A DNA stretch of 64,000 bases from positions 3,754-67,753 of the forward strand of contig NW_024532772.1 in the NCBI RefSeq assembly GCF_016097555.1. The letters are read 5' to 3'. Below the pieces are notes generated by a model. The model saw only the letters and a list, made by a program, of their open reading frames with translations. It had not been told where the DNA came from and ran no database searches. This stretch comes from Gigantopelta aegis. Lineage: Eukaryota. The translations under genes and the position numbers were made by a program. Position 1 is the first letter of the stretch, and every line of letters begins with the position of its first letter. Positions 1,691 through 64,000 of this stretch are shown piece by piece.

Positions 1691-2701
<1,011 letters not shown>

Positions 2702-21329: not shown

Positions 21330-21440
21330 AATACAGCTATGCCACTATAGGATCAACTGCTCCAAATGTCCATGCATGTATTATGATGAATATCTAATAT
21401 AACTAGTTTGATTTTATCTAACAAGTCTAGTCTACTAGGG
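21330..21440 (-). pseudogene. Isolated relic of the GCPII zinc-ligand exon ([14 protein letters not shown]...)
   Basis: ccactataggatcaactgctccaaatgtccatgcatg matches 30370-30420 and 50070-50110. Confidence 0.55.
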
Positions 21441-28547: not shown

Positions 28548-30227
28548 ATTAATCCATTCAACACTGGGTTGATTCATATTTGTGTAGCATAGCGTACATG
28601 GATAGCTACTATATCCAGCTGATGATGTACTTCATTCCAATCTTCTAATGTTGTAGCATTAAGATACTATCTACTACTCCTGGAAAAGAAGCACCTTCAT
28701 ATAAATTGACTGAACTAGGACAAATATAAACATGTCTGTATGGAGAAGAAAGAGAGGAAAGAGATGTTGAGGTATAAATGAAATGGATGGATAGAGAAAA
28801 GAATGGGCAGATAGAATGATCAACATTGTTCTTAGTGAGTACATATATAGAGAGTATTAATTACTTACTTATAATATGGTCGTCCTGGTAATCTTCTGGT
28901 AAAATAAATGATCTCTCTATATTCATTAGTTTATTGTTTAAGTATTCTAACTATATTCTCACTACAATACAGATACAAAGATATAGTTTAATAACTACTG
29001 GAATTATACTAACTTGTCTGTGTCAGCATATTTTATGAGTGTAGTATGAAGATTGGTAGCAGCTGTTTGAAAAAAGTTAGTTAAACAAGAGGAAAGGAAC
29101 TCTATAGAACAAATGATATTATTAATACAATAATTTATATGGATCTCTTATTTCATTAACTAATGTACTATATAATATAGGTAACATGTAAGAGTTAATA
29201 TGACATATTATAATATATATGTATATATTAGGAGGACATCTTACCAGTTGATATATTATGATGTTGTAATTGACTACCATATGTTGTCTGTAACTCATTA
29301 TATAGTTTCCATTAATCTCTCTGTATAATCATTTGGATTGTAAGGAAGAATGGGTGTGGTTTGATAGTGCCATGGCAAACAGTTAACCACACCTTTCCTA
29401 ATGCTTTATGATGTGTGAAGTCAGGATCACCAAAATGACTCATCCAATAAAAATTATCATGAACAGAATGATAGACAAAATAATGGTAGTTATTCTAAAT
29501 GGTTTGATGAATACAATATGGTTACTAAGTTCAATTAAATTGACAAATACATTATTAGAATGGATGGACATGATACCTGGTAATCTATGTCACAGCTGGT
29601 CACTCCAAGACTCTGAATAAAGAAAGTAAAGTCACTCGCAGAGCTCAATTATTTATCCTATAAATAACAAATCACATGATAATCATGTGACAATTTATGT
29701 AGTATACCTTGGTTTTGAAGATTTTGGAGTGGTTCTTTCCACTGTTCATAGACTGTCTGGAAATCATTACAAGGGACAAGCTACTACTAGAGGACAAATG
29801 TCATCTAGATAAATACAGAAGATTGATAATATATTTCTGCAAACTAACTTGTTTTGTGGAATTGTAAATAGATTCATATAACAGTGGACTACTAGAAGCT
29901 GAAAAAGATTCCATTCCTAGATTGAAAAATAAAACTATATATCATTAAATTTCTTGAGTTGTGATATAATTATAACAATATATTATTATTATAAATGTAA
30001 TCAAAGTCTTTACCTTCTACAAGCTACATCTACATTAAGATAAGCCATAGCATTTACTCCTAATAACTTTTTTACATCCTATATATATAATAGAAATAAT
30101 ATATTATATAACTATTTGTAATATACCTCAACATACTCTGTAGAACCAATCAAACCATATTCCTCAGCATCCCAACTACATAATACTACTGTTCTACACC
30201 TGGTCTCCACCTTTAAAATATAGAATT

Positions 30228-30267
<40 letters not shown>

Positions 30268-30720
30268 CTTCCTCTCTCTCACCTCTCTCTCTCTCTCTCT
30301 CATTCTTACCTGTGTTCCTCAGAAAGTCACCTAAACACTCGAGCTATGTCCATTAATACAGCTGTACCACTATTAGGATCAACTGCTCCAAATGTCCATG
30401 CATCATGATGATTACCTAACATAACAAGATGATCTGAGAAGAGAGAGAGAGAGAGAGAGAGAAAGATAGTAAGTAGTACAACAGTCACTATTGATCAACC
30501 TGGTTCTACTTTTCCATATATAACAGCAATACATTACTAATAGTCTCTTCCCTCTAATATATTATTTACTTGAAGGAAAATTAAACTATTAATAAACAAA
30601 GATAAACACACATTAGATCAGACATACTTTGTGTTACTAGTAGATTGATAGATATAGTAAGTGGTAATTTTAGTTCTCCCTTTCCATGACAAATGGAACT
30701 TCATATGTATCTAATTGACT
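28548..30720 (-). pseudogene. GCPII/NAALADase-like copy A: 3' two-thirds only, with frameshifts
   Basis: Collinear with 48350-50400 (- strand) and 53200-55335 (+ strand). Contains the [20 protein letters not shown] exon at 30320-30420 and the [15 protein letters not shown] exon at 30600-30700. Homology ends abruptly near 30720. Confidence 0.7.
30235..30300. repeat. (TC)n microsatellite in a GCPII intron. A (GA)n run lies at 30440-30466 on the other side of the same exon
   Basis: Read directly. The same intronic positions carry GA/TC runs in copies B and C. Confidence 0.9.
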
Positions 30721-31095
30721 TGTCCATGTTTTGTCTTTCAATAATCTTAGATCCAACATATAATTACAATAATTTCACTTACATTCAATATGTGAAGATT
30801 TTGAGAGTACAGAGACACCAGTACTGGTGAAGATTATGGAATTACTTGTCCAGACTCTTGTCGCTCCTATGTTGTAATATACGTGTGAAGGATGTAAATG
30901 AAAAGAAATTTGAATGGGCCTGTAAATTATGCACACAATGTTTCTACAATAATGAATATGATACAATGTGATTTATCCAAAGGGTGGTATCACTGGGTAT
31001 ATTTATCAAGCCAAAGATGTATAATTAAACATGTTTTGTCTTTCGAATAATCTTTGATCCAACATATAATAATTTCACTTACATTCAATAGGACC
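30715..31095. repeat. Pair of ~75 bp direct repeats flanking ~230 bp, at the truncation point of GCPII copy A
   Basis: catgttttgtctttc(g)aataatctt(a/t)gatccaacatataat...aatttcacttacattcaata appears at 30715-30790 and 31020-31095. Confidence 0.75.
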
Positions 31096-31619: not shown

Positions 31620-32165
31620 TTACCAGTCTACTCTTAATTAAATACTTTATATGTACTGTGACATTGCGATAGGTAGTGTTCTCAATACCAGTCCGCAGTT
31701 GTCAATATTTGCTGTGACATAGCGATAGGTAGCGTTCTCAATACCAGTCTCAGTTGTCAATATTTGCTGTGACATACGACTGTTAGTGTTTCTCAATACT
31801 AGTCACATTGCCTAATATCTGTTAGGAACATAGTGACTTTTAGTGCTCCCAATACCAGTGTCGATCACCCTCAACATCTACTGTGACATAACAACTATTA
31901 CTTTTCTAATACGAGTTGCAATTGCCTTAATATCTACCGTACACGTGACATAGCGACTGTTAGCATTCGCAATAACCGGTCTCTATTGCCTCATATTTGT
32001 TTGGGAACATAGTTGCTTGTAGTGCACACAGTACCAGTCTCAATTCCATTGATATCTTCTGTACCATAGCAACTGTTAGTTTTCTTAAAATGAGTTTACA
32101 ATTGCTTACATCTGCTGTGACATAGCAACTGTTACTGTTCTTATTACCACTGTCATTCTTGACTT
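31620..32165. repeat. Minisatellite: ~57 bp unit x ~9 (taccagtctcagttgtcaatatttgctgtgacatagcgataggtagcgttctcaa)
   Basis: Read directly. Lies upstream of the unit 6 DD exon. Confidence 0.85.
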
Positions 32166-36898: not shown

Positions 36899-37249
36899 CT
36901 GCTCATTGTCAGTAGCCTCTGAGTCATTGCAAGTTGATATAAGGGAACCGAGAAACATTTCCATCTCTACCCATCATTGAATGACACAAATAGATATTCT
37001 TAATTTTTGCATACCTATGAATTTTTTAATTTTACCTTTTAAATATTTGCATTGTTGCTATGCTCTTGACATGTTGATGATTTTAATAATAATTATATAT
37101 TTATTGTTAGTAATATGAACACTAATAGTTAGTTTGGTACAATACTTTCTCTACTTACAAAGCAATGACACTGATTTTTCTGGCAAAATACCTGCTTCAT
37201 TACTGATGAAAGCAGATCATTATATATAATATAATACATCAATACATTA

Positions 37250-37330
37250 ATACAGTTTGTACCACTATTAGGATCAACTGCTCCAATGTCCCATAGCATC
37301 ATGATGAATACCTAATATAAACTAGTTTGA
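37250..37330 (-). pseudogene. Isolated relic of the GCPII zinc-ligand exon
   Basis: Matches 21330-21440 and 50070-50110. Confidence 0.5.
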
Positions 37331-38316: not shown

Positions 38317-41300
38317 ATGTCTGATAATCTCCGTCCACCTACTCTTGATCTACTGTGTGATGAGCTAAGGCAAGTAGTTGAATGGGATCAAGTAGCTGTA
38401 AGTCTCAAAGTATCTTATGTGGATATAAAAGTATTGAGACACAATATTCTGAATAGCCACAGCGCAAAATGCATTCTTTACAAAAATGGCTAGATCAAAC
38501 CAACACTGTACATTCATGGCATACTATAGCTGATGCAGTAGAAAAAGCAAAAATCCTGCAGTTGCTGAGAACATTAGAACAAAGTATGCTACTATTATAG
38601 ATCTAGTACCATCCACCTCACAACATGAAAAATCTAGCGATGTAAAAAATGAGCATAATCCAACTAGTTACTTTATGAATAAAGAGCAACAAGGTATTAC
38701 ACTAAATCAAAGCCACAGTGTAAGAATGTAGCGTAAATGATGACCAACATCAAGTTATTATTGAAGAGCAGCAAATCATTCAGTATCTTCAAATTCACAG
38801 CATGAAGAATCTAGTGATACGCTCAATGACAATTATACAACCAGTACTAGTGATATCATTGAACAGCAACAATTAATGGAGAGTGGAGTAAAGCTTGAAA
38901 GAAATATAGTGCAAGAAATCATTGACTTTCTTGAGAGATTTGCAGCATTAGTTTCAGAAACTCAAGCATTTTTTAGAAGAAAAAACCAAAAATTCTTTTA
39001 CCTTTTTATCGATACTTAAAGATTCTAATAGGTGAAGCATTACCAGATGAATCTGGCATCACATATGACAAACTATTTAATATGCTAGATAACCATTGGC
39101 ATTATCTCAAATATCAACTTCTTCAAAGAATAATTAAACGATTTCTTCCGACACTGAATTGCCTTATGAAGTACAAAAATATCAAGATGATATAGTAGCA
39201 TTTAAAAAGTCAACGAAAATGAGAGATCTTGTAGATAATGTGAGATCAAAAAAGAGCATATCAGGTAATGTACAAGTAGCATTGACAGTGGAGGAAGTAT
39301 GGCTAGAGGTCACATTAGAGCATTTTGAGTTTCTAGTAAAACTACTTTTTCAAGAATATGATAAGTCACTTCAAATTGTAGTTGTTCAAGGAGGTAGCTT
39401 GTATATTGCTTGGAGTCTTTCCAAAGCTTTCCTTCTTACAAAATCCAAATTTGACTACAAAGTGCTAAGGGCAATTGGAGTCATCTCACTAATAGTAGGT
39501 ACTATTGTAGTCTTTAACAATGAAGACTCACAAGATGATATGACTATTGACTCAGTCTGTTGGGAGCTATTCAATCTGGTGGTCCTCTTTCTGCTATATC
39601 TCTACTTCTTGAAGTAGGTGGTAATCCTACCTACTAACACAGTCAGGAGAAACAGTGATATCTACTTTATCTAAAATAAAAAATGATAATGGTACCACTG
39701 TGTTACATGTTGCTAGTAAATATGGTCACTCTTCAGTTGTTTCTACCTTACTTAGCAATGGGATAGATCCAAACGTAGTTATGAATAATGGTTGTACGCC
39801 TCTTATGCTAGCTAGTCAGGATGGCCATGATGATGTCATTCAACTGTTACTGAAGTCAAACGTAGCAATAAATACCCAAGGCAAAAATGGAATAACAGCA
39901 AATTATATTGCAAGTCAGAATGGTCACTTTTCTGTTGTTTCTACCTTGCTTAGCAAAGGGGCAGATCCCAACTTAGTTAACAATGATGGCTGGACACCTC
40001 TTATGGCAGCTAGTAAAAATGGTCATAATGATGTCATTGAGATACTACTTTAAAAAAAGGGTATTATGACAAATACCCAAAACAAATATGGAAGAACAGC
40101 CATTTATATCGCTACCCAGAGAGGTCACTCTTCTGTTGTCACTCTCTTACTTAACAATGGGGCAGATCCCAACATAGTGACAATGAAGGCTGGACACCTC
40201 TTATGGTAGCCAGTTTAAATGGTCAACTGATGTCTTTGAGATACTACTAGAGAAAAATATTCCAGTAAATACCCAAAACAATAAGGGAATAACAGCCATT
40301 TGTATCGCTAGTCACCATGGTCACTCTTCAGTTGTTTCTACCTTACTTAACAATGGGGCAGATCCTAATGTAGCTACAAATGATGGTTGGACACCTCTTA
40401 TGACAGCCAGTATAAATGGTCATATGATGTCATTGAGATACTACTAATAATAATGTTTAGTAAATACCCAAAACAATTATGGAAGAACAGCCATTTTATT
40501 GCTAGCCAGAGTGGTCACTCTTCTGTTGTCGCTTTCTTACTCAACAATGGGGCAGACCCTAATTTACCTGATAATGAAGGTTGGGCACCTCTTACGATAG
40601 CCAGTCAAAATGGACATGGTGATGTAATTGAGATATTACTAAGGAAGAATGTTCCAGTAACACCCAAACAAAAAGGGAATAACAGCTATTTGTATGCTAG
40701 CCACCATGGTCACTCTTCTGTTGTCTCTATGTTACTTAGCAATGGGGCAGATGCCAACCTAGCTATGACCAATGGATGGACACCTCTTATGGCAGCCAGT
40801 CAAAATGGTCATGCTGATGTTGTTGAGATACTACTTAACAAGAATGCTCTAGTCAACACCCAAAACAATTATGGAAAAACAGCCATTTATATTGCTAGCC
40901 AGAATGGTCACTCTTCTGTTATTACACCTTACTTAGAAATGGAGCAGACCTTAATTTACCTGGCAATGATGGCTGTACACCTCTTATGGTAGCCAGTCAA
41001 AGTGGTCATGCTGATGTCATTGAATACTACTGGAGAAAAATGTTTCATTAAATACCCAAACAAAGAAGGAGCAACGGCTATTTGTATGGCTAGCTACCAT
41101 GGTCACCTTCCTGTTGTCGCTATGTTAATTAGCAATGGAGCAGATGCCAAAATAGCCGATAATGATGGCTGGACACCTCTTCTGGTAGCTAGTCTAAATG
41201 GTCATGATGATGTCATTAAGATACTACTAGAAAATAATGTTCTAGTAAATACCCAAAACGAAAAAAGGATAACTGCTATTTATATTGCTAGTCAGAGTGG

Positions 41301-44300
41301 TCACTCTTCTGTTGTTTCTACCTTGCTTAGCAATGGGGTAGATCCCAGCCTAGCTACGAGTGATGGCTGGACACCTCTTATGGCAGCCAGTCAAAATGGT
41401 CATACTGATGTTATTGAGATATTACTTAATAAGAATGTTCTAGTAAACACTCAAAACAATTACGGAAGAACAGCCATTTATATTGCTAGCCAGAATGGTC
41501 ACTCTTCTGTTGTTTCTTCCTTACTCAAGAATGGGGCAGATCCTAATTTATCTGACAATGATGGCTGTACACCTCTTATGGTAGCCAGTCAAAATGCTGA
41601 TTATGATGTCATTAAGATACTACTAGAGAAGTATGTTTCACGTAAATATCCAGAACAAGGAAGGAGAAACAGCTATTTGTATTGCTAGCCACCATGGTCA
41701 CTCTTCTGTTGTTTCTACCTTACTTAGCAATGGGGCAGACCCCAACATAGCTGACAATGATGGCTGGACACCTCTTATGGTAACCAGTCTAAACAGTCAT
41801 GGTGATGTCATTAAAAAACTATTAATGAAAAATGCTACAGTAAATGCCCAAACTAAAAAGGGAATAACAGCCATTTATATTGCTAGCCAGAATGGTCACT
41901 TTTCTGTTGTTACTACCTTACTTAGAAATGGGCAGATCCCAGCCTAGCTACAAGTGATGGCTGGACACCACTTATGGCAGCCAGTCAAAATGGTCATGCT
42001 GATGTCGTTGAGAAATTACTTAAAAACAACGTTTTAGCAAATACTAAAAACAATTTTGGGAAAACAGCTATTTATATTTCTAGCCAGAGTGGTCACTCTT
42101 CTGTTGTCTTTTCCTTACTCAACAATAGTGCAGACCCTACTCTACCTGACAATGATGGCTATACACCGCTAATGGTAGCCAGTCAAATGCTCATGATGAA
42201 GTCATTAAGATACTACTAGAGAAGTATGTCCAGTAAATACCCAAAATAAGAAGGACAAACAGCCATTTATATTGCTAGCCACCATGGTCTCTCTTTTGTT
42301 GTCTCTATCTTACTTGGCTTTGGAGCAGATCCCAACATAGCTGACAATAATGGATGGACACCTCTTATGATAGCCAGTGTAAACTCTTATGGTGATGTCA
42401 TTGAGATACTTCTAGAGAATAATGTTCCAGTAAATACCCAAAACAAAAAGGGAGTAAACACCTATTGTATTGCTAGCCAGAACGGTCACTCTTCTGTTGT
42501 TTCTACCTTACTAAGAAATGGGGCAGATCCCAACTAGCTGCAAATGATGGCTGGACACCTCTTATGGCAGCCAGTCAAAATAGTCATGCTGATGTTATTG
42601 AGATATTACTTAATAAGAATGTTCTAGTAAACACCAAAAACAATTATGGAACAACAGCCATTTATATTGCTAGCCAGAATGGTTGCTCTTCTGTCGTATC
42701 CTCCTTACTTAACAATGGGGCAGACCCTAATTTACTGACAATGATGGCTGTACACCTCTTATGATAGCTATTGAAAAAGGTCATAGTGATATCATTAAAT
42801 TATTATTAAAGCACAGGGCACCGATAAATACCCAATCCAAAGATGGAGAAACTGCAATTTATTTTTTTAGCAAGACTGGTCATTCTTCTGTTGTTTCTAC
42901 CTTACTTAGCAATGGTGCAGATCCTAACTTAGCTAACAATAATGGCTGGACACCTCTTATGGCAGCCAGTAGAAATGGTCATAGTGATGTCGTTTTAAGA
43001 TACTATTAGAGAATAATGTTCTAGTAAATGCACAAACCGAAAAGGAGTAACGGCCATTTGTATTGCTAGTCACCATGGTCACTCTTCTATCATTTCTATC
43101 TTACTTAACAATGGGGCAGATCCCAGCTTAGCTGACAATGATGGATTGACATCTCTTATGGCAGCCAGTGGAAATAGTCATAGTGATGTTGTTAAGATAC
43201 TATTAGAGAATAATGTTCTAGTAAATGCACAAACCGAAAAGGAGTAACGGCCATTTGTATTGGTAGTCACCATGGTCACTCTTCTATCATTTCTATCTTA
43301 CTTAACAATGGGGCAGATCCCAGCTTAGCTGACAACGATGGCTTGACATCTCTTATGGCAGCCAGTGGAATGGTCATAGTGATGTTGTTGAGTTATTATA
43401 GAGCAGAATATTTCAGTAAATACTCAAACAAATAATGGAAGAACAGCCATTTATATTGCTAGCCAAAATGGTTACTCTTCTGTCATCTCGTTCTTACTTA
43501 GCAATGGTGCAAACCCTAATATACCTGACAATGATGGTTGTACACCCTTATGGTAGCCAGTAAAAATGGTTACATTGATGTCATTAAGATACTACTACAG
43601 AATAATGTTCTAATAAATACCCAAAATGAAGAAGGAGTAACAGCTATTTGTATTGCTCGCCATCGTGGTCACTCTTCAGTTGTTTCTATCTTACTTAACA
43701 ATGGGGCAGATCCCAACACAGCTACAAATGATGGCTGGACACCTCTTATGGCAGCCGTGTAAATGGTCATACAGATGTCATTGAAATACTACTTAATAGA
43801 AATGCTCCTAGTAAACATCCAAAACAATTATGGAAGAACAGCCATTTATGTTGCTAGCCAGAGTGGTCACTCTTCTGTTGTCTCTTCCTTACTTAACAAT
43901 GGGGCTGACCCTAATTTACCTGACAACGAAGGTTGGATACCTCTTATGATAGCCAGTCACAATGGTCATGGTGATGTCATTGACATACTACTTAATAAAA
44001 ATGTTCTAATAAATACCAAAAACAAATATGGAAGAACAGCCAATTTATATCGCTACCCAGAGTGGTCACTCTTTTGTTGTCTCTACCTTACTTAGCAATG
44101 GCGCAGATCCCAACATAGCTGACATTGAGGTTGGACACCTCTTATGGCAGCCATTGTAAATGGTCATGTGATGTGATGGAGATACTATTAAAGAGAAATG
44201 TTCCAGTAAATACCCAAACCAAAAGGGGAATACAGCCATACGTATTGCTAGTCACCATGGTCATTCTTCTGTTGTTTTCTATCTTACTTAACAATGGAGC

Positions 44301-47300
44301 AGATCCCAACCAAGCTGACAATGATGGCTGGACACCTCTTATGACAGCCAGTATAAATGGTCATGCTGATGTCATTGAGATACTACTTAATAATAATGTT
44401 TTGTAAATACCCAAAAACTATTATGGAAGAACAGCGATTTTTATTGCTAGCCAGAGTGGTCACTCTTCTGTTGTCTTTTCCTTACTCAACAATGGGGCAG
44501 ACCCTAATTTACCTGATAATGAAGGTTGGACACCTCTTATGATAGCCAGTCAAAATGGTCATGGTGATGTCATGGAGATACTGTTAGAGAGAAAATGTTC
44601 CAGTAAATACCCAAACCAAAAGAGGAATAACAGCCATATGTATTGCTAGTCACCATGGTCATTCTTCTGTTGTTCTATCTTACTTAACAATGGGGCAGAT
44701 CCCAATCTAGCTGACTATGATGGCTGGACACCTCTTATGATAGCCAGTGTAAATGGTCATGCTGATGTCGTTGAGATACTACTTAATAAGAATGTTCCAG
44801 TAAATATCCAAAACAATTATGGAAGAACAGCTATTTATATTGCTAGCCAGAATGGTTGCTTGTCTGTTGTCTCTGCTTACTCAACAATGAGGCAGACCCT
44901 AATTTACCTGACAATGAAGGATGGACACCTCTTATGAGAGCCAGTCAAAATGGTCATGATGATGTCATTGAGCTACTACTAGAGAAGACTGTTCCATTAA
45001 ATACCCAAAACAAAGAAGGAATAACAGCTGTTTGTATTGCTAGCTATCGTGGTCGCTTTTCTGTTGTCTCTAAATTACTTAGCAATGGAGCAGATCCCAA
45101 CATGGCCGACAATGATGGCTGGACAACTCTTCTGGTAGTTAGTCTAAATGGTCACGGTGATGTCATCAGGATACTACTAGAGAATAATGTTACAGTAAAT
45201 ACCCAAACCAATAAGGGAATAACGGCCATTTATATTGCCTGTCAGAGTGGTAATTCTTCTGCCATTTCTACCTTACTTCACAATGAAGCAGATCCCAACC
45301 TAGTTGACAATGATGGCTGGACACCACTTATGATAGCTAGTGTGAATGGTCATACTGATGTTGTTGATTTACTACTTAATAAGAATGTTCCAGTAAATAC
45401 CCCCAAAACAATTATGGAACAACAGCCATTTATTTGCTAGCCAGAATGGTTGTTCTTCTGTTGTATCCTCCTACTCAAAAATGGGGGCAGATCCTAATTT
45501 ACCTGACAATGATGGCAATACACCTCTTATGATAGCTATTGAAAAAGGTCATAGTGATGTCATTCAGTTGTTATTGAAGCAGAAAGTACCAATAAATACC
45601 CAATCTAAAGATGGAGAAACTGCAATTTATTTTTTTAGCAACTGGACTGGTCATTCTTCTGTTTCTGTTGTTTCTACCTTATTACTATTAGCAATGGTGA
45701 AAGATCCTAACATAGCTATGAACAATGGCTGTACACCTCTTATGATAGCTACCTCTTATGAAAAAGGTCATAGTGATGTCATTCAATTTTATTAAAGCAG
45801 AAAGTACCAATAAATACCCAATCTAAAGATGGAGAAACTGCAATTTATTTTTTTAGCAAGACTGGTCACTCTTCTGTTGTTTCTACCTTACTTAGCAATG
45901 GTGCAGATCCTAACATAGCTATGAACAATGGCTGTACACCTCTTATGATAGCTATTGAAAAAGGTCATAGTGATATCATTCAATTATTATTAAAGCATAA
46001 GGTACCAATAAATACCCAATCTAAAGATGGGAGAAACTGCAATTTATTTTTTAGCAAGACTGGGTCACTCTTCTGTTGTTTCTACCTTACTTTAACAATG
46101 GTGCAGATCCTAACATAGCTATGAACAATGGCTGTACACCTCTTATGATAGCTATTGAAAAAGGTCATAGTGATGTCATTCAATTATTATTAAAAGCATA
46201 AGGTACCAATAAATACCCAATCCAAAGATGGAGAAACTGCAATTTATTTTTTTAGCAAGACTGGTCATTCTTCTGTTGTTTCTACCTTACTTAACAATGG
46301 TGCAGATCCTAACATAGCTATGAATGATGGCTGGACACCTCTTATGGCAGCCAGTCAAAGTGGTCATAATGATGTCATTAAGTTACTACTAGAGAAGAAT
46401 GTTCTATTAAATACCCAAAACAAAGAAGGAGTAACAGCTATTTGTATCGCTAGTCACCATGGTCACTTTTTCTGTTTGTTTCTACCTTACTTAGCAATGG
46501 GGCAGATCCCAACATAGCTGACAATGATGGTTGGACACCTCTTATAGTAGCCAGTCTAAATGGTCATACTGATGTCATTGAGATACTACTAGAGAAGAAT
46601 ATTCAAGTAAATACCCAAACCAATAAGGGAATAACGGCCATTTGTATTGGTAGTCACCATGGTCACTCTTCTATCATTTCTATCTTACTTGACAATGGTG
46701 CAGATCCCAACCTAGCTGACAATGATGGTTGGACACCTCTTATGACAGCCAGTATAAATGGTCACGCTGATGTCGTTGAGATACTACTTAATAAAAATGT
46801 TGTAGTAAACATCCAAAACAATTATGGAAGAACAGCCATTTATGTTGCTAGCCAGAGTGGTCACTCTTCTGTTGTTTCTTCCTTACTTAATAATGGGGGT
46901 GACCCTAATTTACCTGACAATGATGACTGGACACCTCTTATGGCAGCCAGTGGAGGTGGTCATGGTGATGTTGTTAAATTATTACTAGAGAACAATGTTC
47001 CAATAAATACACAAAACAAAAATGGAGCTACAGCAATTTTATATTGCTTGCTTGACTGGCCACTCTTCTGTCATTACTATTTTAATAACAATGGAGCAGA
47101 TCCTAACTTAGCCAGGACTAATGGCTGGACACCTCTCATGATAGCCTGTGCCAAAGGACATGACAATGTTATAAGAGAGTTATTAATGACCCCAAATTAA
47201 TATCAATCATCAAACTCCTACTGGTACTACAGCATATATCTTTCTAGTCAATATGGATATGAGATATTGTTAGACAGCTACTGAATGGTGGTGCTAATCC

Positions 47301-47587: not shown

Positions 47588-48349
47588 GAGCCAATATCTA
47601 ATAATGTTACACTAAACTAATTTGATTTAAAATAATACATTAATAACATCTGATCACTTCACAGAGCAGACTCTGATGTTGGTCAATTGTCAAATATAAA
47701 GGAATACCATGATGATACTCTCTTCTTACACTGAACCAAGCACACTAAGACAAGAGATATAATGTAAGAAAAACAATAAAGTACTTATTTCCAGTTAATG
47801 CAATGTTAATAATGATAAGATAGAATTTCAATTGAACTTCAATAACTGATGTCTCTAATTGAAAATTTCAAAAAGCATTCTGTAAACATAATGTGTATTA
47901 ATCAATTCATTAGTTATAAAGCACATTACATTGACTGTAATAGAAACAATGATCATTGTAATACAAAGAAGTATCTAGAAGGATCTTGTAATAATAGTTT
48001 AATAATTTAAATATTTAATTATATTTCATATATTTAGGGACAAACTCACCTGACACAGTTACTGAAATATATTTTCAAAATGAACATATTCATAAACATA
48101 CTGATACTTTAATTATTAATGTTTTGTTATGTTATTGTATCTTGTTAATTAATTATTTGTATTAATTAAAATCCATATTTATGAAACTACATTGCTTGAA
48201 ATCTGAATACTAAATAACATATTATAGCGGACTTGTTTACAAATAATTATTGTTTAATTATTATAATATGATATGGTGTGTTTTACATTTTTGTATAATT
48301 ATAATAACAAAAGTTTATAATACTTCAGATGTAATTAATTAATTAATTA

Positions 48350-51010
48350 ATTAACCCATTTAATACTGGGTTGATTCATAATTTGTTGTAGCATAGCGTA
48401 CATGGATAGCTACTATATCCAGCTGATGATGTACTTCATTCCAAATTTCTAATGTTGTAGCATTAAAGATACTATCTACTACTCCTGGAAAAGAAGCACC
48501 TTCATATGAATTGACTGAACTAGGAGCAAATATAACATGTCTGTATGGAGAAAGAAAGAGAGGAATGAGATATTAAGGTTTAAATGAATGGATGGATAGA
48601 GAAAAGAATGGACAGATAGAAGGATCAACCATTGTTCTTAAGTGAAGTACATGTATATCGGAGTATTTGTTACTTACTTATAAGATGGTCGTCCTGGTAA
48701 TCCTTCTCGGTTGAAAATAAATGATTCTCTCTATATTCATTAGTTTATTGTTAAGTATTCTGACTATATTCTCACTACATACAGAGGACAAAGATATAGT
48801 TAATAACTACTGGAATATTATACTAACTTGTCTGTGTCAGCATATTTTATGAGTGTATTATGAAGATGGTAGCAGCTGTGAAAAGTCAGTTAAACAAGAG
48901 TAAAGGAACTCTATAGAACAAATAACCATTATTAATACAATAATTTATATGATCTCTTATCATTAACTAATATACTAATATAATATATATAACATGTAAG
49001 AGTTAATATGACATATTATAATATATATGTATATATAGGAGGACATCTTACCAGTTGATATATTATGATGTTGGAATTGACTACCATATGTTGTCTGTAA
49101 TCATTATATAGTTCCATTAATCTCTCTGAATAATCAATTGGATTGTAAGGAAGAATGGGGTGTGTTGATAGTGCCATGGCAACAGTTAACACACCTCTCC
49201 TAATGCTGTATATGATGTGTGAAGTCAGGATCACCAAAATGACTCATCCATAAAAATTATCATGAACAGAATGATAGACAAAATAATGGTAGCTATTCTA
49301 AATGGATTGATAAATTCAATTAAATGAATAAATACATTATTAGAATGGATGGGCATGATACCTGGTAATCTATGTCACAGCTAGTCACTCCAAGACTCTG
49401 AATAAAGAAAGTAAAGTCACTCGCAGAGCTCAAATTATTTATCCTATTAAATAAACAAATCACATGATAATCATGTGTCAATTACATATACCTTGGTTTT
49501 GAAGATTTGGAGTGGTTCTTCCACTGTTCATAGACTGTCTGGAAATCATTACAAGGACAAGCTACCTAGAGGACAAATGTCATCTTGGATAAGATTAATG
49601 TACACTAACTTGTTTTGTAGCATTGTAAATAGATTCATATAACAGTGGACTACTAGAAGCTGAAAAAGATTCCATTCCTATATTAAAAAATAAAACTATA
49701 TATCATTAAATCTCTTGAATAGTTATATAATTATAATATTATTATTATTATTATAAATGTAATCAAGTCTTTACCTTCTACAGCTACATCTACATTAAGA
49801 TAAGCCATAGCATTTGCTCCTAATAACTTCTCTACATCCTATATATAATATAAATAATATATTATATAACTATTTGTATATAATATACCTCACACTACTC
49901 TGTAGAACCAATCAAACCATATTTCTCAGCATCCCAACTACATAATACTACTGTTCTACCTGGTCTCCAACCTTTAAAATATAGAATTCTTCTTCTCTCT
50001 CTCAGTCATTCTTACCTGTGTTCCTCAGGTCACCTAACACTCGAGCTATGTCCATTATGCAGCTGTACCACTATTAGGATCAACTGCTCCAAATGTCCAT
50101 GCATCATGATGATTACCTACATAACAAGATGATCTGAGAAGAGAGAGAGAGAGAAATATAGTAAGTAGTACAACAGTCCCTATTGATCTACCTGGTTCTA
50201 CTTTTCCATAAATAACAGCAAATACATTACTAATAGTTCTTCTCTCTAATATATTATTTACTGAAGGAAAGTAAACTATTAACAAACAAAGATAAACACA
50301 CATTAGATCAGACATACTTTGTGTTACTAGTAGACTGATAGATATAGTAATTGGTAATATTTAGTTCTCCCTTCCATGACAATGGAACTTCATATGTATC
50401 TAATTGACTAAAGAGAGAAACATACAGACATTTATTATTATTATATATAGTTACTTCATAAAATGGACAGCATCTCCATAAGATATTGGTTGAACAGGTA
50501 TAGCAGGAACATCACCAGATCTGATAAAACATCTTCATAAGACCGACGATATACTTCATCTGAAAGAGAACAGAGATTATAAGGACAATGACAAACAAGG
50601 TAGTTAGCACCAACTGCTGGTATTCCAGGAGTAAGAGGATCTCCACTTGATATCATAACTGACCCTCGTTGTAACCCTCAGGAGGAAGACTAGGACCATT
50701 AGGGTAGACAGGGGGACCTCCTTTGGGAGCAACATCTGCTGGATCAGAGTATATGATTAATCCAGTACATCGAATCTTTGAGCTAAATGAGCCTGTTAAA
50801 GATATAAAGTGCTATCCTACAGACACAGACTCATTCCAAAAAGTAAAAGTATTAAATTATGAAACTTATGATACCTTATCTCCCCTGTATATCCTACCAT
50901 ATCTTGCTATACAAATATGACCAGTAATGTTTAGACTTAAATTTTTAGTAATATAATCAAAGTCTTTAAATTGTGCATAATTTACATAAACCAGAGGTCC
51001 CTAAATTAAA

Positions 51011-51063
<53 letters not shown>

Positions 51064-51630
51064 TTTAGCGCAAGATAAATAATTGCTTACTTCAGCTGAT
51101 CCAATCCTGAATAACTATTAAAAGGAGGAGGGGACATCAGTGTCATTTTCTCCTGGTGTCAGGGGAGGGTTCCTGCCTGTTTCTGCAGTGTAGAGGACAT
51201 CTTTGTCATCATTAAGAACCTTTAGTACATTGTAGTTGCTGCGATTTACATAACTCAATAATACACTATAATTTGTCATCTCTACAAGATCAAAATTATT
51301 TTGTGAGAAAGACTGATAAATGAGGTTAGCAATATCTTTATTTTGTTCCTTGCCAGCAATATGAGGTCTGGCAGTAAGTTGTCTATCAGAGAAGTATTAA
51401 TAATTATGATCAGTTTAATCTTGTAACACTTTACCTTAAAATTCTTTTTATTTATTTGAATCCAAACTTTCAGACACATAGTCTCCTATTGCTGAGACTG
51501 ACCATTAACAGTACAATAGCACCCCATGAGTTAACTGCAGGTCAGTAGACTCATTAATACTCCATCCTAGTAGGAAACCAGCCCCAAAACTGGTACAAAG
51601 TAACAATACTACACTGATAATGGCACAAAT
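48350..51630 (-). pseudogene. GCPII/NAALADase-like copy B: inverted 5'-truncated duplicate of copy C. Lacks the start codon and cytoplasmic tail, and carries frameshifts
   Basis: - strand ORFs: 49016 ([19 protein letters not shown]), 50055 ([26 protein letters not shown], then a stop caused by a missing T), 50456 ([12 protein letters not shown]...[11 protein letters not shown]). Exon GPLVYVNYAQFKDF...[18 protein letters not shown] at 50940-51010 is intact. Homology to copy C stops at 51630 after the TM-coding segment. A 1-bp deletion lies inside the TM exon. Confidence 0.75.
51013..51060. repeat. (GA)n microsatellite in a GCPII-B intron
   Basis: Read directly. Confidence 0.9.
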
Positions 51631-52350
51631 TTTACAGAGGATATACTTGGACTTTTTAGATGATTTTTTAGATGGCAATATGTGAATTCTTTTTGGATAG
51701 GGAGCAGCTCATCCGAACTATGATCATCGGCCATTATAGTATACGGACAAAAGTACTATTTATATTGCATTACATTTCAGTATAAATTTCAGAATGTTTC
51801 CGTATTCTTCCGCATACTAATCGCAGCTGATTTTATATAATAATTATATCGATTATTAGTTTGTAGTGCAATGGCCGATAAAGGTGGACTATTAGATGAT
51901 GACAGAACGAACGAGTTGGGCTCTATCAAAAAAGAGGACCATCCATTACAATCTAAAAGATCGCTTAAAAAGTCCAGACATATCTTCAGTCTAGTTTGTG
52001 CCATTATCTGTGTAGCATTGTTGCTTTGTACCAGTTTTGGGGCTGGTTTCCTACTAGGATGGAGTATTAATGAGTCTACTGAACCTGCAGTTAACTCATG
52101 GGGTGCTATTGTAACTGTTAATGGTCAGTCTCAGCCAATAGGAGACTATGTGTCTGAAAGTTTGGATTCAAATAAATAAAAGAGAATTTAAGGTAAAGTG
52201 TTACAAGATTAAACTGATCATAACTATTATTATTACTTCTCTGATAGACAACTTACTGCCAGACCTCATATTGCTGGCAAGGAACAAAATGAAGATGTTG
52301 CTAACCTCATCTATCAGTCTTTCTCACAACATTATTTTGATCTTGTAGAG
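51280..52350. repeat. Centre of the B/C palindrome. Inverted-repeat arms 51280-51630 and 52010-52350 flank a ~380 bp unique spacer that holds the copy C start codon
   Basis: Frame-shifted six-frame ORFs 51282-51479(-) and 52148-52348(+) translate to near-identical peptides ([26 protein letters not shown]...), which is the signature of an inverted duplication. Direct comparison shows about 95% identity. Confidence 0.85.
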
Positions 52351-55335
52351 ATGACAAATTATAGTGTATTATTGAGTTATGTAAATCGCAGCAACTACAA
52401 TGTACTAAAGGTTCTTAGTGATAATAAAGATGTCCTCTACACTGCAGAAACAGACAGGAACCTCCCCTGACACCAGGAGAAAATGACACTGATGTCCCTC
52501 CTCCTTTTAATAGTTACTCAGGAATTGGGATCAGCTGAAGTAACCAATTATTTATCTCATGCTAACTCTCTCTCTTCTTTCTCCTTTAGGGACCTCTGGT
52601 TTTGTAAATTATGCACAATTTGAAGATTTGATTATATTACTAAAAACTTAAGTTTAAACATTACTGGTCATATTTGTATAGCAAGATATGGTAGGATATT
52701 CAGAGGAGATAAGGTATGAGAAGTCTCATAATTTAATACTTCTAGTCTGTGAATGGGACTGTGTCTGTAGGATAGCACTTTATATATTAACAGGCTCATT
52801 TAGCTCAAAGATTGGATGTACTGGATTAATCATATACTCTGATCCAGCAGACTATGCTCCCAAGGAGGTCCCGCTGTCTACCCTAATGGTCCCTAGTCTT
52901 CCTCCTGGAGGGTTGCAACGAGGGTCGTTATGATAATAAATGGAGATCCTCTTACTCCTGGAATACCAGCAGTTGGTACTATTACCTTGTTTGTCATTGT
53001 CCTTATAATCTCGTTCTCTTTCAGATGAAGTATATCGTCGATCTTATGAAGATGTTATCAGATCTGGTGATGTTCCTGCTATACCTGTTCAACCAATATC
53101 ATATGGAGATGCTGTCCATTTTATTGAAGTAACTTATAATAATAATATAATAAATGTCTGTATGTTTCTCTCTTTAGTCAATTAGATACATTTGAAATCC
53201 CATTGTCATGGAAGGGAGAACTAAATATTACCAATTACTATATCTATCAGTCTACTAGTAACACAAAGTATGTATGTCTGATCTAATGTGTGGTTTATCT
53301 TTGTTTGTTAATAGTTTAACTTTTCTTCAAGTAAATAATATATTAGAGAGAAGAACTATTAGTAATGTATTTGCTGTTTTTATGGAAAAGGTAGAACCAG
53401 GTTAGATCAATAGGGACTGTTGTACTACTTACTATCTCTCTCTCTTTCTCTCTCTTCTTCCCTCTTTCTCTCTCTCTCACTCAGATCATCTTGTTATGTT
53501 AGGTAATCATCATGATGCATGGACATTTGGAGCAGTTTATCCTATAGTGGTACTGCTGTATTAATGACATAGCTCGAGTGTTAGGTGACCTGAGGAACAC
53601 AGGTAAGAATGAGAGAGGAGAGAGGAGAGAGAGAGAGAGAGAGAGAGAGAAGAATTCTATATTTTAAAGGTTGGAGACCAGGTAGAACAGTAGTATTATG
53701 TAGTTGGGATGCTGAGGAATATGGTTGATTGTTCTACAGAGTATGTTGAGGTATATATATACAAATAGTTATATATATATATTATTTATATTATATATAG
53801 GATGTAGAGAAGTTATTAGGAGCAAATGCTATGGCTTATCTTAATGTAGATTTAGCTGTAGAAGGTAAAGACTTGATTACATTTATATAATGATAATATT
53901 ATTATAATTATATAATTATAACAATTGATGTATTTAATGATATAATACTTTTATTTTCAATCTAGGAATGGAATCTTTTTCAGCTTCTAGTAGTCCATTG
54001 TTATATGAATCTATTTACAATGCCACAAAACAAAGTTAGTGTACATTAATCTTCTGTATTTATCCAAGATGACATTTGTCCTCTAGGTAGCTTGTCCTTG
54101 TAATGATTTCCAGACTGTCTATGAACAGTGGAAGAACCATTCCAAATCTTCAAAACCAAGGTATATGTAATTGTCACATGATTATCATGTGATTTGTTAT
54201 TTAATAGGATAAATAATTTGGGTTCTGGAAGTGACTTTACTTTCTTTATTCAAAGTGTGGGAGGTGGACCAGCTGTGATATAGATTAACAGGTACCATGT
54301 CCATCCATTTCTAATAATGTATTTGTCCATTTAATTTGAACTTATCAAGCCATTTTGTATTCATCAATCCATTTAGAATAGTTACGATTATTTTGTCTAT
54401 CATTCTGTTCATGACAATTTTTATTGGATGAGTCATTTTGGTGATCCTGACTTCACACATCATAAAGCATTAGGAGAGGTGTGGTTAACTGTTGCCATGG
54501 CACTATCAACCACACCCATTCTTCCTTACAATCCAATTGATTATTCAGAGAGATTAATGGAACTATATAATGAGTTACAGACAACATATGGTAGTCAATT
54601 ACAACATCATAATATATCACTGGTAAGATGTCCTCCTGATATATACATATATATTATAATATGTCATATTAACTCTTACATGTTATATATATATTATATT
54701 AGTATATTAGTTAATGACATAAGAGATCATATAAATTATTGTATTAATAATGTCATTTGTTCTATAGAGTTCCTTTACTCTTGTTTAACTGACTTTTCAA
54801 CAGCTGCTACCAATCTCATAATACACTCATAAAATATGCTGACACAGACAAGTAATAGTAATTCCAGTAGTTATTAACTATATCTTTGTCTCTGTATTGT
54901 AGTGAGAATATAGTTAGAATACTTAACAATAAACTAATGAATATAGAGAGATCATTTATTTTACCAGAAGGATTACCAGGACGACCATATTATAAGTAAG
55001 TAATAATACTCTATATATATGTACTTCACTAAGAAACAATGGTTGATCCTTCTATCTGTCCATTCTTTTCTCTATTCATCCATTCATTTATACCTTAATA
55101 TCTCTTTCTCTCTTTCTTTCTCCATACAGACATGTTATATTTGCTCCTAGTTCAGTCAATTCGTATGAAGGGGTCGTTCTTTTTTCCAGGAGTAGTAGAT
55201 AGTATCTTTAATGCTACACATTAGAAGATTGGAATGAAGTACATCATCAGCTGGATATAGTAGCTATCCATGTACGCTATGCTACACAAATTATGAATCA
55301 ACCCAGTATTAAATGGGTTAATTAATTAATTAAAC
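51871..55335 (+). CDS. GCPII / NAALADase-like copy C (M28 peptidase, transferrin-receptor family; type II membrane protein). Multi-exon with a start codon. Several exons carry 1-bp indels, so it may itself be a pseudogene
   Basis: Exon 1 ORF 51871-52179 gives MADKGG...cytoplasmic tail..[22 protein letters not shown] (TM)..ESTEP. Exon 2 (from about 52247) ...[19 protein letters not shown]...[14 protein letters not shown] matches GCPII HLAGTEQN...YDVLLSYPN. 52688 [22 protein letters not shown]...[10 protein letters not shown] matches GAKGVILYSDPADYFAPGV...LPGGGVQRGN. 52940- [12 protein letters not shown]|intron|[11 protein letters not shown]. 53510- [12 protein letters not shown] (zinc-ligand region, with indels). 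54428 [50 protein letters not shown]. 54890- [31 protein letters not shown]. Stop near 55333. Confidence 0.7.
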
Positions 55336-58751: not shown

Positions 58752-61700
58752 GGAAGGAGAGAGAGAGAGAGGAGAGAGAGAGAGAGTCATTCAGTCAGTA
58801 CACATATAATTTTATTGCAATATTTTTAAAACTATTGTTGTCATAAATATATACAAGTTTCTTTTGATGATCTGTCTGTCCTGAAGACTGTCAAAAATGT
58901 CACACTTTACTGAAGCTAGTACTTTCCCTTCCACTCAAATTACAAAATAAACAGTAAACACTTAAACAAATAAGTTAACATTTATGGAACACCCAATACA
59001 ATATAATCTTTGTATACAAACAAACCACCTACATACATGTACATTTACATACATGTACAACATTTAACTTCATTTGTGTATATATATTACAGTAGTATTG
59101 TTTTTGATTAGTTCTCAAACACATTTCCTCTAACTATCCAATATCCTCTTTGCAACCAGAACTACAGTCAAGTCACACAAAATAAACTTATACATGTAAA
59201 ATAACACATTCCATAACTCCCTAAGTTTTCATAACTGAACTCCAGCAGCTTGGAACACAGCCAAATAAGGACAATAAGGACTGTACCATATAAATAGAGT
59301 GTATTACAATGCTAACATCCAATATATAACACTGTAACTTGATATTATTATTTTTGAATTTAGTTAAGCCACGCCCAGCAAGCTACACTAGCATTTAATG
59401 ATTATTCATAGCTATAGCTTGTATCTTGTTTATTGTATTCAAAGACTGTTTGAATTTTAAACATCATTTAAAGATCAGCTCACTGATAAGAACCAGGTTA
59501 CAAGAAATAAGAATTATATTAACAATATTCATGTCAAATGTAAGAATGACCTTTCTTTACAGGAATGTGTCTACATTTACATCATCAAAATTATAAGTAT
59601 ATTTTACTTCTACATGTATAAAGGCACACACACACACATAGATATATCAAATTGATCAACTCCACTAACTACATATATCATTCTGATATCACGTCAAATA
59701 GAGTAGAATTTTCCTTTATAAGTAATCGTAATGAAAAGGTCCTTCCTTTCAAAGGTTAAAATAAATACAGGAAAGCGCTGTGGATATTAGCTTCAATAGT
59801 AAGATAATTCTTAAATCAGAGGTACTCCCAAAGAGAACCATTACTTAGAGAGAACCCTTTACTTAGAGAGAACCCAAAAGGCTGAGTATAACTGTGATAT
59901 AATAACAACTAGTTTAAACATTGGCTATAACTCTCAGTATAGTTGCCAGATAACTTGGTCACTACTATAGTAATGATATAGCATTCAAATGTCTTCAATA
60001 TGAAAACTGTCATCTCATCTAATAGTGTATTACTAATAGTAGACAATTAAGTTAAAAAGAGATAACATTTTCCTAATAGTGTCAAGTTGTCCACACTCTA
60101 AACTAATATAGTTCATAAATTGTTGCAGCCTTAAGATTGTATAGGCTCTATTGAATGTTACTAATAGTCTCAGCTTGTCATCTATCTACCAGGACACTCT
60201 GATAAAACAAACCAGCCCTCTATTCTCTTCACTCCACTACAAATTTTTTAATAGAGGAATTTAATATTGAAGAGTATGCCATCAGTTTTTTACAAACAAG
60301 TGATAAGATTGATCAAACTCATTGAAAGTTAGCTGCCCATTACTGATAATATGTTATGATAATAATATAATATAATAAGTATGTAGATTTGATATGATCT
60401 ATGGCACATTAATAGCATATAATAATGATATACTACTGTAGCTATGATACTAGGAATTAATGTAAGATGACTGCTCACATTGACATTGTATTAAAGTTAA
60501 AAAGAGACATTTTTTTACATTCAGTGCTACTGACCTGAGATACTGGTGTTGGTCTAGATCCATTTCTTTTAGGAACAGCCATTTCTTAGCAAAGTTTAGG
60601 ATCAAATCTATCAAAGGAAATACAATCAATCATAAGTTATCATACAGGTAGTTGACTCTAGTTAGATCAATAAACATAGACTAGATATCTTCTCAAATAA
60701 GGACAACAACAACAACACCACGTCATATTTCTCTTGATATTATTATCAAGCCTCAAGTTTCACTAAAGTAGATTAAATATTGACAGAGTTTGATAACTGT
60801 CATTGAATGGGAACTTGGTATGTTGTTACTAAGTGTATTGTGATAAACACAAAGTCAGTATTGATGGAGTACATGAAATACCAATGGTACTCCAATATAT
60901 AATTGTTGTTGATAAAAATTATCGACAGTACTAGCTTTAGTCTTTGATGATGTTTCATATCATGTAACAGTGTGTATGACAAAGTTATTAGACTATATTA
61001 AGTTACTGTGGTTAGTACATATTATAGGCTATCTTGAGTCATTGTGGTAAGTACTGATGTTCACTAGTCTAGAGCTTACTGATGGTAGCTATCCTAGGTC
61101 ATTGTAGTAAGTACTGATGTTCACTAGTCTAGAGCTTACTAATGGTAGCTATCCTAGGTCACTGTGGTAAGTACTGATGTTCACTAGTCTAGAGCTTACT
61201 AATAGTAGCTATCCTAGATCACTGTAGTAAGTACTGATGTTCACTAGTCTAGAGCTTACTAATGGTAGCTATCCTAGATCACTGTGGTAAGTACTGATAT
61301 TCACTAGTCTAGAGCTTACTAATGGTAGCTATCCTACTGTTGTTCACTAGTCTAGAGCTTACTAATGATAGCTGTTATTGGATAGAGTTTATTGATGATT
61401 ATAAAGCAGTAATGGTCACAATTGATAAAGTATACTTCTCAGTTTTTAAGTAATCCTCCAAACCCTTTATAAAAACTATCGCAATTATCAAATTGTAAAC
61501 TAATAGAAGCCAAGTTAACTAACAAGACCATTAACAATATACACATATCGCTACTACTTTGTACGCATATTTTATACATGACTTGTGTACATTTGAATGG
61601 ACACATTTAAATAACTTTCAATATAGTATAATGGTCAAATTGAGTTATCAAGATTATATGCTCATCACCAAACATACACTAAATGACCACAATCCAGCAC

Positions 61701-62454
61701 TTCCTTAAATGGAAAATACACGGCAGTTTACATGACAATTTTGGGTAGCTACTGCAAGCTAGTTGTGATGGGGACATTACTGACACTTTAATACAATGTA
61801 TTGAGAATTAGCATCTAATCTATCTTACCACATCACTATACTAAGTGTTAATATTAAGAAATAACAAGCTCTGTTAATTAGTACTTCGTTGCTATGGTGA
61901 TCTAGAAAACAACTATCACTAACAAAGCTAGTGAACATTATGAGTCAAAGTCATCGTCCTATTAGAGACTCTTAGTATATTATATGATAGTCAGTAGGCT
62001 TATTTATAAATGGCAGTCAAATTTATAAGAACTCACAAGTTTTTCGTCAATTACTAGAGGGTTCTCAGCATGAGCATCCAAAATATATTGTACTGTTTCA
62101 GCATCTTTAAAAGTAATGAAACCAAAACCACTAGAAGAAAAGAAAAGAAGAAGAGAAGAAAGACAAGGAGAGAGAAATACAATTAATGATAATGAAACTA
62201 TATCTTTTCCTCTTAGACTTCTCTAAACACATACAAATTTCACTGAATGAATGTATGTATACAAAGTGTGTAGAACTAATGATAAAGGATGAAAAACTAA
62301 CAATGTTAGTCAACTGATGTTTAGATAGTTAAATGTCAGTAACTAACATGTTATAATTTATAACACTCACCGTGAACGTTTAGCTTGATCTTTCATAATT
62401 GTACATTCCAAAATGTCTCCAAACTCAGCGAAAAATGTGCAAAGTGTTTCTGCA

Positions 62455-62487
<33 letters not shown>

Positions 62488-63311
62488 TGGAGAGAGATAG
62501 AAAAAGAGAGAGAGAAAGAACATTTTAAAATTGACATACAAATCTATTTTACATCACAAGTACACATAATTATAAATCAAAATTGGTCACTTAAACCACT
62601 TGTAAGACTCACCCATAATGAATACTATAATTAACTGAATGAGATAAGGTTTCAATTCATGCCTAAAGCATGGTAGTTGTATGCTTTAGACATAAGTATC
62701 ATACCACACACATTCTCTAGGGCTGGTATCAAGTACACATATCTTAAAGTCAATACTTATATCCTGAGTCTGATACCACAATTAAGACTGATACCTATAC
62801 TCGTAATCTGGCTAGCATCCACAAACATTGTACTATGGGTCAGAACATATCACTAGTAATGGACTAAAAAGGTGGCAATAACCATTAACTATCTTGTCAA
62901 GTTTACGCAAACATAATACATACCTTCAGTTGTCTCCAAGTTGAGAGCACCTACAAATAGTTTGCTAAAAAATATAGTGCAGAGAAATGATCAGTTTAGT
63001 GTAGCAGAAACAGATACAATAATTCACTCAGTCTGTTATATATAATAATTTTGTGTATTTTCACTTTATAATATTATGTATTATCCAATAGTGAGCAAGC
63101 ATATAATTCTCTTTGATAAACTACAAAGAAATAACCATAACTAGATATTTCCCAGTGAAAACATTTTAGCTGTGAATTAAATAATTAACTCACTTGTGTT
63201 GGCTGTCTTCACAAGCTGGGGGGCTTTCTGGTGGAGAAGGAGAGCAAGTATCTGAGCTATTCGTCTTCTCGGTGACTTTGTCCTCTTCTGGTTGCAAAGT
63301 TAGACTCGAAG
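56850..63311 (-). CDS. Multi-exon gene for a two-RRM RNA-binding protein (Musashi / hnRNP-A/B / DAZAP1-like) with an Ala/Pro/Gly/Tyr-rich C-terminal region
   Basis: Minus-strand exons with GT/AG borders: 63195-63311 (MPVPSSLTLQPEEDKVTEKTNSSDTCSPSPPESPPACEDSQH), 62925-62964 (KLFVGALNLETTE, RNP-2), 62371-62439 (TLCTFFAEFGDILECTIMKDQAKRS), 62017-62130 (RGFGFITFKDAETVQYILDAHAENPLVIDEKL, RNP-1). RRM2: 58580-58653 (IFVGGLSSDTDEDDMKEF..), 58224-58278 (IEEVQMMYDVHKHPNRHR), 58071-58153 (GFGxVTFEKPGPAAKVCSIQFHDLKNR), 57891-57974 (VEVKVAQTKEA...). Further low-complexity C-terminal exons lie at 56850-57830 (..LHYGGYSYHGDTNMPAPPFYPSGFPGPYFG..). Confidence 0.75.
58706..58790. repeat. (GA)n compound microsatellite (intronic)
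   Basis: Read directly. Confidence 0.9.
61028..61370. repeat. Minisatellite: ~60 bp unit x ~6 (agctatcctaggtcattgtagtaagtactgatgttcactagtctagagcttactaatggt), intronic
   Basis: Read directly. Confidence 0.9.
62017..62964 (-). CDS. RRM1-coding exons of the RNA-binding protein gene (three exons, phases consistent)
   Basis: Splice phases join cleanly: ..SQHN|KLFVGALNLETTE|TLCTFFAEFGDILECTIMKDQAKRSR|GFGFITFKDAET... Canonical RNP-2 and RNP-1 are both present. Confidence 0.8.
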
Positions 63312-63800: not shown

Positions 63801-64000
63801 TTTCTCTATGAATAAAATTATTTGCCGTCAATGAAGATTAAAAATAAAATATATATTATTTAGTTAAGACACGTTTCAAGAGTTTTAAAATCTGGTCTTT
63901 CTCGAAGTTCCTTCATTCCGTGAGCATATGGGCATTGATCAGATAGTAAACGCGGACAGCCTTGTGGATGATGGTCATAAAACCAGCATAACTTCGTTTT

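Follow-up and report, generated by a model that had tools for sequence, protein, structure and literature searches.

The 64,000-nucleotide (nt) window analyzed here, which spans positions 3,754 to 67,753 of contig NW_024532772.1 in the Gigantopelta aegis assembly GCF_016097555.1, contains a peptidase gene resembling GCPII in three copies (A, B and C), all of them interrupted by small lesions. The initial annotation took the family to be entirely pseudogenized unless these lesions were sequence errors. In all likelihood the single-base lesions are unpolished consensus errors in a repeat-rich region and not gene death; a wholly pseudogenized family is very probably the wrong reading, and the reported feature is mostly an artifact of assembly quality. 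The reading is carried by the lesion spectrum, the signal of selection in the coding sequence, the damage to unrelated genes nearby and a related scaffold with intact frames. Specifically, the ratio of non-synonymous to synonymous divergence (dN/dS) is low, the 1-base-pair (bp) homopolymer indels are not depleted in exons, and the neighboring ankyrin genes are hit equally. The alternative of sequence or assembly error, already allowed for in the initial annotation, is thus favored, and an independent relative of the three copies is frame-intact.

Self-comparison of the window reveals one gene present as copies A (28.5-30.7 kb, minus strand), B (48.3-51.7 kb, minus strand) and C (51.9-55.3 kb, plus strand; Table 1). 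B and C each contain all 17 exons (E1-E17) and are arranged head to head, with their divergent start codons flanking a short spacer that is presumed to be a shared promoter region. The 16 introns of copy C are 47-145 nt long and all GT..AG, and every splice site checked in the copies is likewise an intact GT..AG. Copy A is the sister of B (synonymous divergence (dS) 0.03, against 0.07 between B and C) but is truncated at its 5' end. Its homology to B and C starts precisely at the E6 acceptor, and exons E1-E5 were not found nearby; the sequence upstream, from 30718-30800 onward, is unrelated and includes a 55-nt tandem repeat (31649-31859). The window is eukaryotic in character: its G+C content is ~34%, its introns are short and bounded by GT..AG, and it contains (AG)n microsatellites. 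Nearly all of it is multi-copy sequence in which the paralogous peptidase genes are interleaved with tandem ankyrin-repeat genes.

Frame repair, in which only small indels were added or removed and nothing else was changed, yields an open reading frame of 2313 nt (770 codons in 17 exons) with no internal stop. The repaired protein contains PF02225 (PA; 4.6e-9), PF04389 (Peptidase_M28; 2.3e-20) and PF04253 (TFR_dimer; 1.9e-29), all passing the curated cut-offs. Among solved structures in the PDB, phmmer matches it best to GCPIII (3FEC; E=6.7e-152, residues 95-758) and GCPII (~1e-148), followed by NAALADL1 (4TWE; 8e-117) and the transferrin receptor (~1e-51). The name 'GCPII-like' given in the initial annotation is therefore correct, since the three domains and the best structural matches agree. 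The protein is ~37% identical to human GCPII and is colinear with the human GCPII and GCPIII structures along its full length. Its closest relative is the 'Aminopeptidase NAALADL1' of Amphimedon queenslandica (A0A1X7V380), with 60% identity over 98% of the length; homologues from a further three demosponges (Ephydatia, Geodia and Halisarca) share 45-54% identity with it. By these matches the window sequence most likely derives from a demosponge. In a library of 5.8 billion protein sequences, no full-length match exceeded 60% identity; besides Amphimedon, the protein searches returned exon-sized matches from other sponge-like contigs. Such contigs occur in public 'metagenome' assemblies, among them the scaffold L002 described below, the only close one, and two with more distant GCPII-like genes, L001 (a 330-kb contig) and L003.

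The sponge alignment supports the repaired frame throughout, including the end of E1, the start of E4 (..GDKAHLAQR[L/F]GC) and the E5/E6 junction (..HFMNQLD), and colinearity with the sponge proteins holds even in segments between compensating indels. The repaired consensus keeps the five zinc ligands and the catalytic glutamate (H410, D420, E457, E458, D486 and H574), and none of these six positions varies among the aligned sponge proteins. The human counterparts we take to be H377, D387, E425, D453 and H553 of the co-catalytic zinc site, together with the catalytic Glu 424. Near the N terminus, a short charged tail leads into a hydrophobic stretch that lines up with the anchor segments of homologous sponge proteins and is, by sequence, a predicted type-II membrane anchor. 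The repaired genes are ordinary members of the known M28B (GCPII/NAALADase) family, and the locus represents a real cluster of type-II membrane M28B metallopeptidase paralogues, with B and C full-length and head to head and A truncated at its 5' end.

Every lesion named in the initial annotation occurs in the sequence as described. The zinc-ligand exon E8 has two 1-bp deletions in C, insertions in A, and lacks one T in B, where it reads ..GTAA and then a stop; B in fact lacks a second T in this exon that had escaped listing. Exon E3 (GPLVYVNY..IARYGR) is intact in B and carries two 1-bp deletions in C. That end-to-end translation fails for every copy is also borne out, and the lesions listed at the outset are a small part of the total damage: relative to the repaired frame there are ~25 indel events in the 2313 nt of C, ~31 in B, and 25 in the 1285 nt of exon sequence in A. 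Within B, exons E3, E6 and E10-E13 are free of lesions, and at the E5/E6 junction a T is inserted in C only, the frame of B being correct. Some events form local clusters, as in E17 of C (55174-55181). MAFFT under-counts such events because paired -1/+1 changes show up as runs of mismatches, so the counts come from gap-tolerant re-alignment with the exons checked by hand; in E17, a '-1(A)' at the terminus of each copy is an extraction artifact and was excluded.

The indels have a narrow spectrum. In exons, C has 25 events, of which 24 involve a single base; for A the figure is 22 of 25. Of the singleton 1-bp indels, 33 of 38 (87%) change the length of a homopolymer, although runs hold only 43% of the bases, and many events sit in runs of just two or three bases. 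Their frequency was compared with that in L002 (ENA metagenome scaffold ERZ23495435 scaffold_73085), a 1579-bp sequence of ~94% identity that covers nine exons, E7-E15, and is an outgroup to A, B and C. Across the 909 nt of exon common to all four, L002 is free of frameshifts, against 11-15 in each of the window copies; the indel load of the window copies is thus far above chance. Singleton substitutions and 1-bp indels number 57 and 3 in L002, 32 and 8 in C, 25 and 11 in B, and 28 and 19 in A (Fisher p=4.6e-5), which corresponds to 0.25-0.7 1-bp indels per substitution in the window copies versus 0.05 on the L002 branch. Neutral animal DNA typically accumulates ~0.05-0.2 indels per substitution, with a broad range of lengths and a bias toward deletion.

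Exons and introns differ in a manner that separates the two kinds of event. Among aligned nucleotides, 1-bp indels affect 2.6% in exons and 3.3% in introns, and substitutions 2.9% and 4.2%, whereas longer indels affect 0.29% and 2.1%. Longer indels are therefore 7-fold rarer in exons when the comparisons are pooled, and 11-fold rarer between B and C (p=2e-6). This contrast implies that real indels have been selected against in exons and that the 1-bp indels have not.

The same damage extends to genes of another family. In the largest ankyrin array (7.4 kb), 16 of the 31 intervals between successive motifs are not multiples of three, which implies ~0.5% indels per nt, and the four arrays tested (18.4 kb onward) switch frame every 360-1200 nt. 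The 1-bp indels, concentrated at homopolymers, are about as dense in introns and unrelated genes as in exons, regardless of function, as expected of errors. In addition, a 1008-nt poly(C) run near the start of the window looks like a consensus or sequencing artifact and fits a noisy consensus.

Meanwhile, the coding sequence retains a signal of constraint. After frame repair, and with codons adjoining indels masked, dN/dS between B and C is 0.34 (27 synonymous and 35 non-synonymous differences; p=7.6e-5); it is 0.37 between A and C, and 0.25-0.31 between L002 and A, B or C. A true pseudogene is expected to evolve under relaxed selection with dN/dS near 1, yet five of the six comparisons fall at 0.25-0.37. 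The dN/dS check between copies proposed alongside the original claim therefore speaks against pseudogenization. In each copy, nearly all of the codons used come after the first frameshift, which, together with the low dN/dS, indicates that the frames were open for most of the divergence. When changes are assigned to terminal branches with L002 as outgroup, masking leaves only 16 that are usable (5 synonymous, 11 non-synonymous; p=0.19), and the result is uninformative.

The most probable course of events is that consensus errors, mainly miscounted homopolymer lengths, produced the overwhelming majority of the single-base lesions in all copies. A long-read assembly that went unpolished, or that could not be polished in a multi-copy region, would retain such indels. 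Beneath them, genes B and C would be intact, or would have been so until very recently, and under purifying selection. That long reads were used, and that polishing failed in the repeats, is what we infer from the sequence.

Several observations weigh against this explanation, which is itself a matter of statistical inference. The indels of A are mostly insertions and those of B mostly deletions, a difference in bias between copies. L002 is a paralogue or orthologue from a different locus, and only its name points to a short-read origin. B and C also seem to have two 1-nt deficits in common, one where E1 ends (52174/51453) and one where E4 begins (52814/50772), both at places where the frame is fixed by the sponge proteins, and lesions common to both could be ancestral mutations. 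Each of these sites falls in a homopolymer run of A or G, however, and for ~10 events per copy distributed over the 190 runs of E1-E5, chance alone would give about 0.5 coincidences; ancestral frameshifts are moreover unlikely, as they would contradict the dN/dS of 0.34. The two internally deleted gene fragments (D and E, at 10.4 and 16.3 kb) were examined for the E1 lesion but diverge exactly there and are uninformative. The dN/dS between A and B is 0.8, which, although based on 25 differences and not significant, is compatible with relaxed selection, and the terminal branch of A has one synonymous and seven non-synonymous changes. Lastly, three substitutions survive the repair. In C, D420Y (GAT>TAT, 53538-53540) replaces the bridging zinc aspartate and Y564* (TAA, 54286-54288) introduces a stop; in B, E458K (AAA, 49922-49924) replaces the zinc-ligand glutamate of the DAEE motif. 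All six active-site residues are intact in L002 and in copy A.

These substitutions are the basis of a mixed explanation, in which errors account for most 1-bp indels while B and C are genuine paralogues predicted to be catalytically inactive (pseudoenzymes), each through loss of a different zinc ligand, or C is a very young pseudogene by virtue of Y564*. The GCPII family includes non-catalytic members, namely the transferrin receptor and NAALADL2. D420Y and E458K strike two of the five metal ligands, all of which are kept in L002 and the other copies, and two ligand changes among ~35 non-synonymous B-C differences exceed a rough expectation of ~0.2. Nor do singleton substitutions show an error-type bias: 38 of 47 in A, B and C copy a neighboring base, compared with 26 of 31 in L002 (p=1). 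On the other hand, an assembly with 1-1.5% indel errors should carry some substitution errors as well, each of the three changes makes a base identical to the one beside it (TTG>TTT for D420Y, GGAA>GAAA for E458K and ACC>AAC for Y564*), as fits errors at homopolymer boundaries, and the counts are tiny. D420Y, E458K and Y564* may thus be substitution errors or, as predicted from the residues affected, a real loss of catalysis, and we regard the mixed explanation as unlikely.

Genuine pseudogenization, in which the three copies and the neighboring ankyrin genes are dead and independent small indels arose by mutation, is very unlikely. Every copy is broken many times, A is without exons E1-E5, and the fragments at 9.6-10.5 and 15.6-16.3 kb are internally deleted; the A-B comparison, the apparently common B/C frameshifts, and the nonsense change and lost ligands in C and B can be read in the same way. 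The reading must nonetheless accommodate constraint downstream of the supposed frameshifts, an indel-to-substitution ratio well above that of the L002 branch, and the intact splice sites. More than 90% of the exon indels in A and C (~92-96%) are of 1 bp, with insertions about as common as deletions, and it is the longer ones, 7-11 times depleted in exons, that selection has removed, not the 1-bp ones. Moreover, ~25-31 frameshifts against ~30 substitutions per copy would require the sudden, very recent and simultaneous decay of unrelated gene families.

If the lesions were real, a whole 60-kb sponge cluster of GCPII-like and ankyrin genes would be undergoing destruction by an unusual, recent mutational process strongly biased to single-base indels or, in a milder form, B and C would be predicted to be intact pseudoenzymes that have each lost a different zinc ligand. 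We consider this highly improbable; were it true, the destructive process would be so recent that the signal of purifying selection persists. The least probable account, to which we give almost no weight, is that the inverted pair formed by B and C arose in assembly or from a fold-back read with a missed adapter, one locus having been read twice with different errors: the near-perfect head-to-head palindrome with ~3.4-kb arms and a 136-nt center suggests it, but it was rejected because the arms differ by ~3% substitutions with a synonymous excess shaped by selection, the N-terminal exons have diverged, the microsatellites differ, B is nearer to A than to C, and the center contains no adapter-like sequence.

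Part of the pseudogenization claim may nevertheless stand. It is not supported for the family as a whole but possibly holds for copy A, the two fragments and, through its one nonsense substitution, C. Only A and the fragments are structurally truncated or have lost essential exons. Copy A may be a true pseudogene regardless of its indels, as suggested by its truncation, the one synonymous and seven non-synonymous changes on its own branch, and its dN/dS with B. The two fragments, in which part of exon 1 is joined to exons 15-16 within ~0.6-0.9 kb, lie ~6 kb apart inside a duplicated segment and are real structural gene remnants. Two isolated pieces of ~80 nt (21326-21406 and 37245-37320) are 84-93% identical to the zinc-ligand exon E8, and no other GCPII exons were found near them.

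The repaired protein is like other members of the M28B family (MEROPS M28B; human FOLH1, NAALAD2 and NAALADL1, and A0A1X7V380) in its anchor, its domains and, in the consensus, its zinc ligands and catalytic Glu. The window genes differ from that family in that no copy can be translated as written, C and B each have one ligand replaced, and the members are clustered locally, two of them head to head and others reduced to truncated pieces. Unprocessed pseudogene clusters offer a second comparison, as they too consist of tandem or inverted paralogues with frame-breaking lesions, and include truncated copies, of which the window has A as well as the 9.6- and 15.6-kb fragments. However, a true pseudogene is expected to have a neutral indel spectrum (events far rarer than substitutions, varied in length, and depleted or not depleted alike at every size), and the window copies show neither this spectrum nor a neutral indel-to-substitution ratio, with dN/dS ~0.3 and intact splice sites.

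The lesions also resemble the frameshift 'pseudo-pseudogenes' created by indel errors in long-read assemblies, which Watson and Warr reportedly described in 2019. Long-read assemblies keep homopolymer-length errors that fragment or pseudogenize genes, and these persist in repeats after short-read polishing, as described for Kastor (PMC12007338) and Polypolish (PMC8812927), our comparators for this class. As in those cases, the lesions are mostly of 1 bp, fall in homopolymers at ~1% per nt, affect exons, introns and unrelated genes evenly in repeat-rich sequence, and can be trivially repaired to restore the frames. They are atypical in that many fall in 2-3-base runs and in that the balance of insertions and deletions differs between copies.

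The remaining features of the window are included in Table 1. The ankyrin genes have related upstream domains, for example at 17.5-18.4, 32.7-33.6 and 38.9-39.8 kb. An RNA-binding protein gene, apparently single-copy, has its CCCH zinc finger at the window edge.

Table 1. Features of the window, with positions counted from its first nucleotide
Feature	Position	Strand	Remarks
GCPII/NAALADase-like copy C	51871-55327	+	17 exons, E1 51871-52192 to E17 55130-55327
GCPII/NAALADase-like copy B	48345-51734	-	17 exons, E1 51435-51734 to E17 ~48345-48540; head-to-head with C
GCPII/NAALADase-like copy A, 5'-truncated	28543-30718	-	exons E6-E17 only
Spacer between start codons of B and C	51735-51870	.	136 nt
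Exon E8 of C (zinc ligands H410, D420)	53485-53602	+	-A at 53544, -G at 53566, D420Y at 53538
Exon E8 of B	50016-50133	-	-T at 50057 (..GTAA, stop), -T at 50119
Exon E8 of A	30310-30433	-	+T at 30335, +TTT at 30325
Exon E3 of C	52590-52713	+	-1 at 52603, -1 at 52627
Exon E3 of B	50875-51000	-	intact, 126 nt
Internally deleted GCPII-like fragment	9595-9821 + 10360-10458	-	exon 1 part joined to exons 15-16
Internally deleted GCPII-like fragment	15560-15845 + 16229-16309	-	exon 1 part joined to exons 15-16
Ankyrin-repeat genes, at least 6, tandem	7.4-8.7, 13.8-15.4, 18.4-20.7, 23.8-27.2, 33.6-35.6, 39.7-47.1 kb	+	198-nt period
Largest ankyrin array	39722-47146	+	Tandem Repeats Finder (TRF): 198-nt period, 37.5 copies; longest stop-free stretch 248 aa
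Poly(C) run	1692-2699	+	1008 nt, ~5% scattered A/G/T, AT-rich flanks
RNA-binding protein gene exons	62007-62222, ~62440-62520, 63900-64000	-	RRM motifs (..FFAEFGDILECTIMKD.., ..GFGFITFKDAETV..), CCCH zinc finger (CWFYDHHPQGCPRLLSDQCPYAH)
Minisatellite	11622-12418		67/135-nt unit, ~6-11 copies
Minisatellite	61038-61373		60-nt unit, 5 copies, 95% matches

The window thus serves as a quality flag, with ~0.5-1.5% single-base indel errors, and gene models, as well as any claims of pseudogenes or frameshifts drawn from it, need accurate reads first. The same caution probably extends to further repeat-rich regions of this assembly. Taken at face value, the sequence would tell of a sponge that lost a whole local family of GCPII-like peptidases, and that reading would very probably be wrong.

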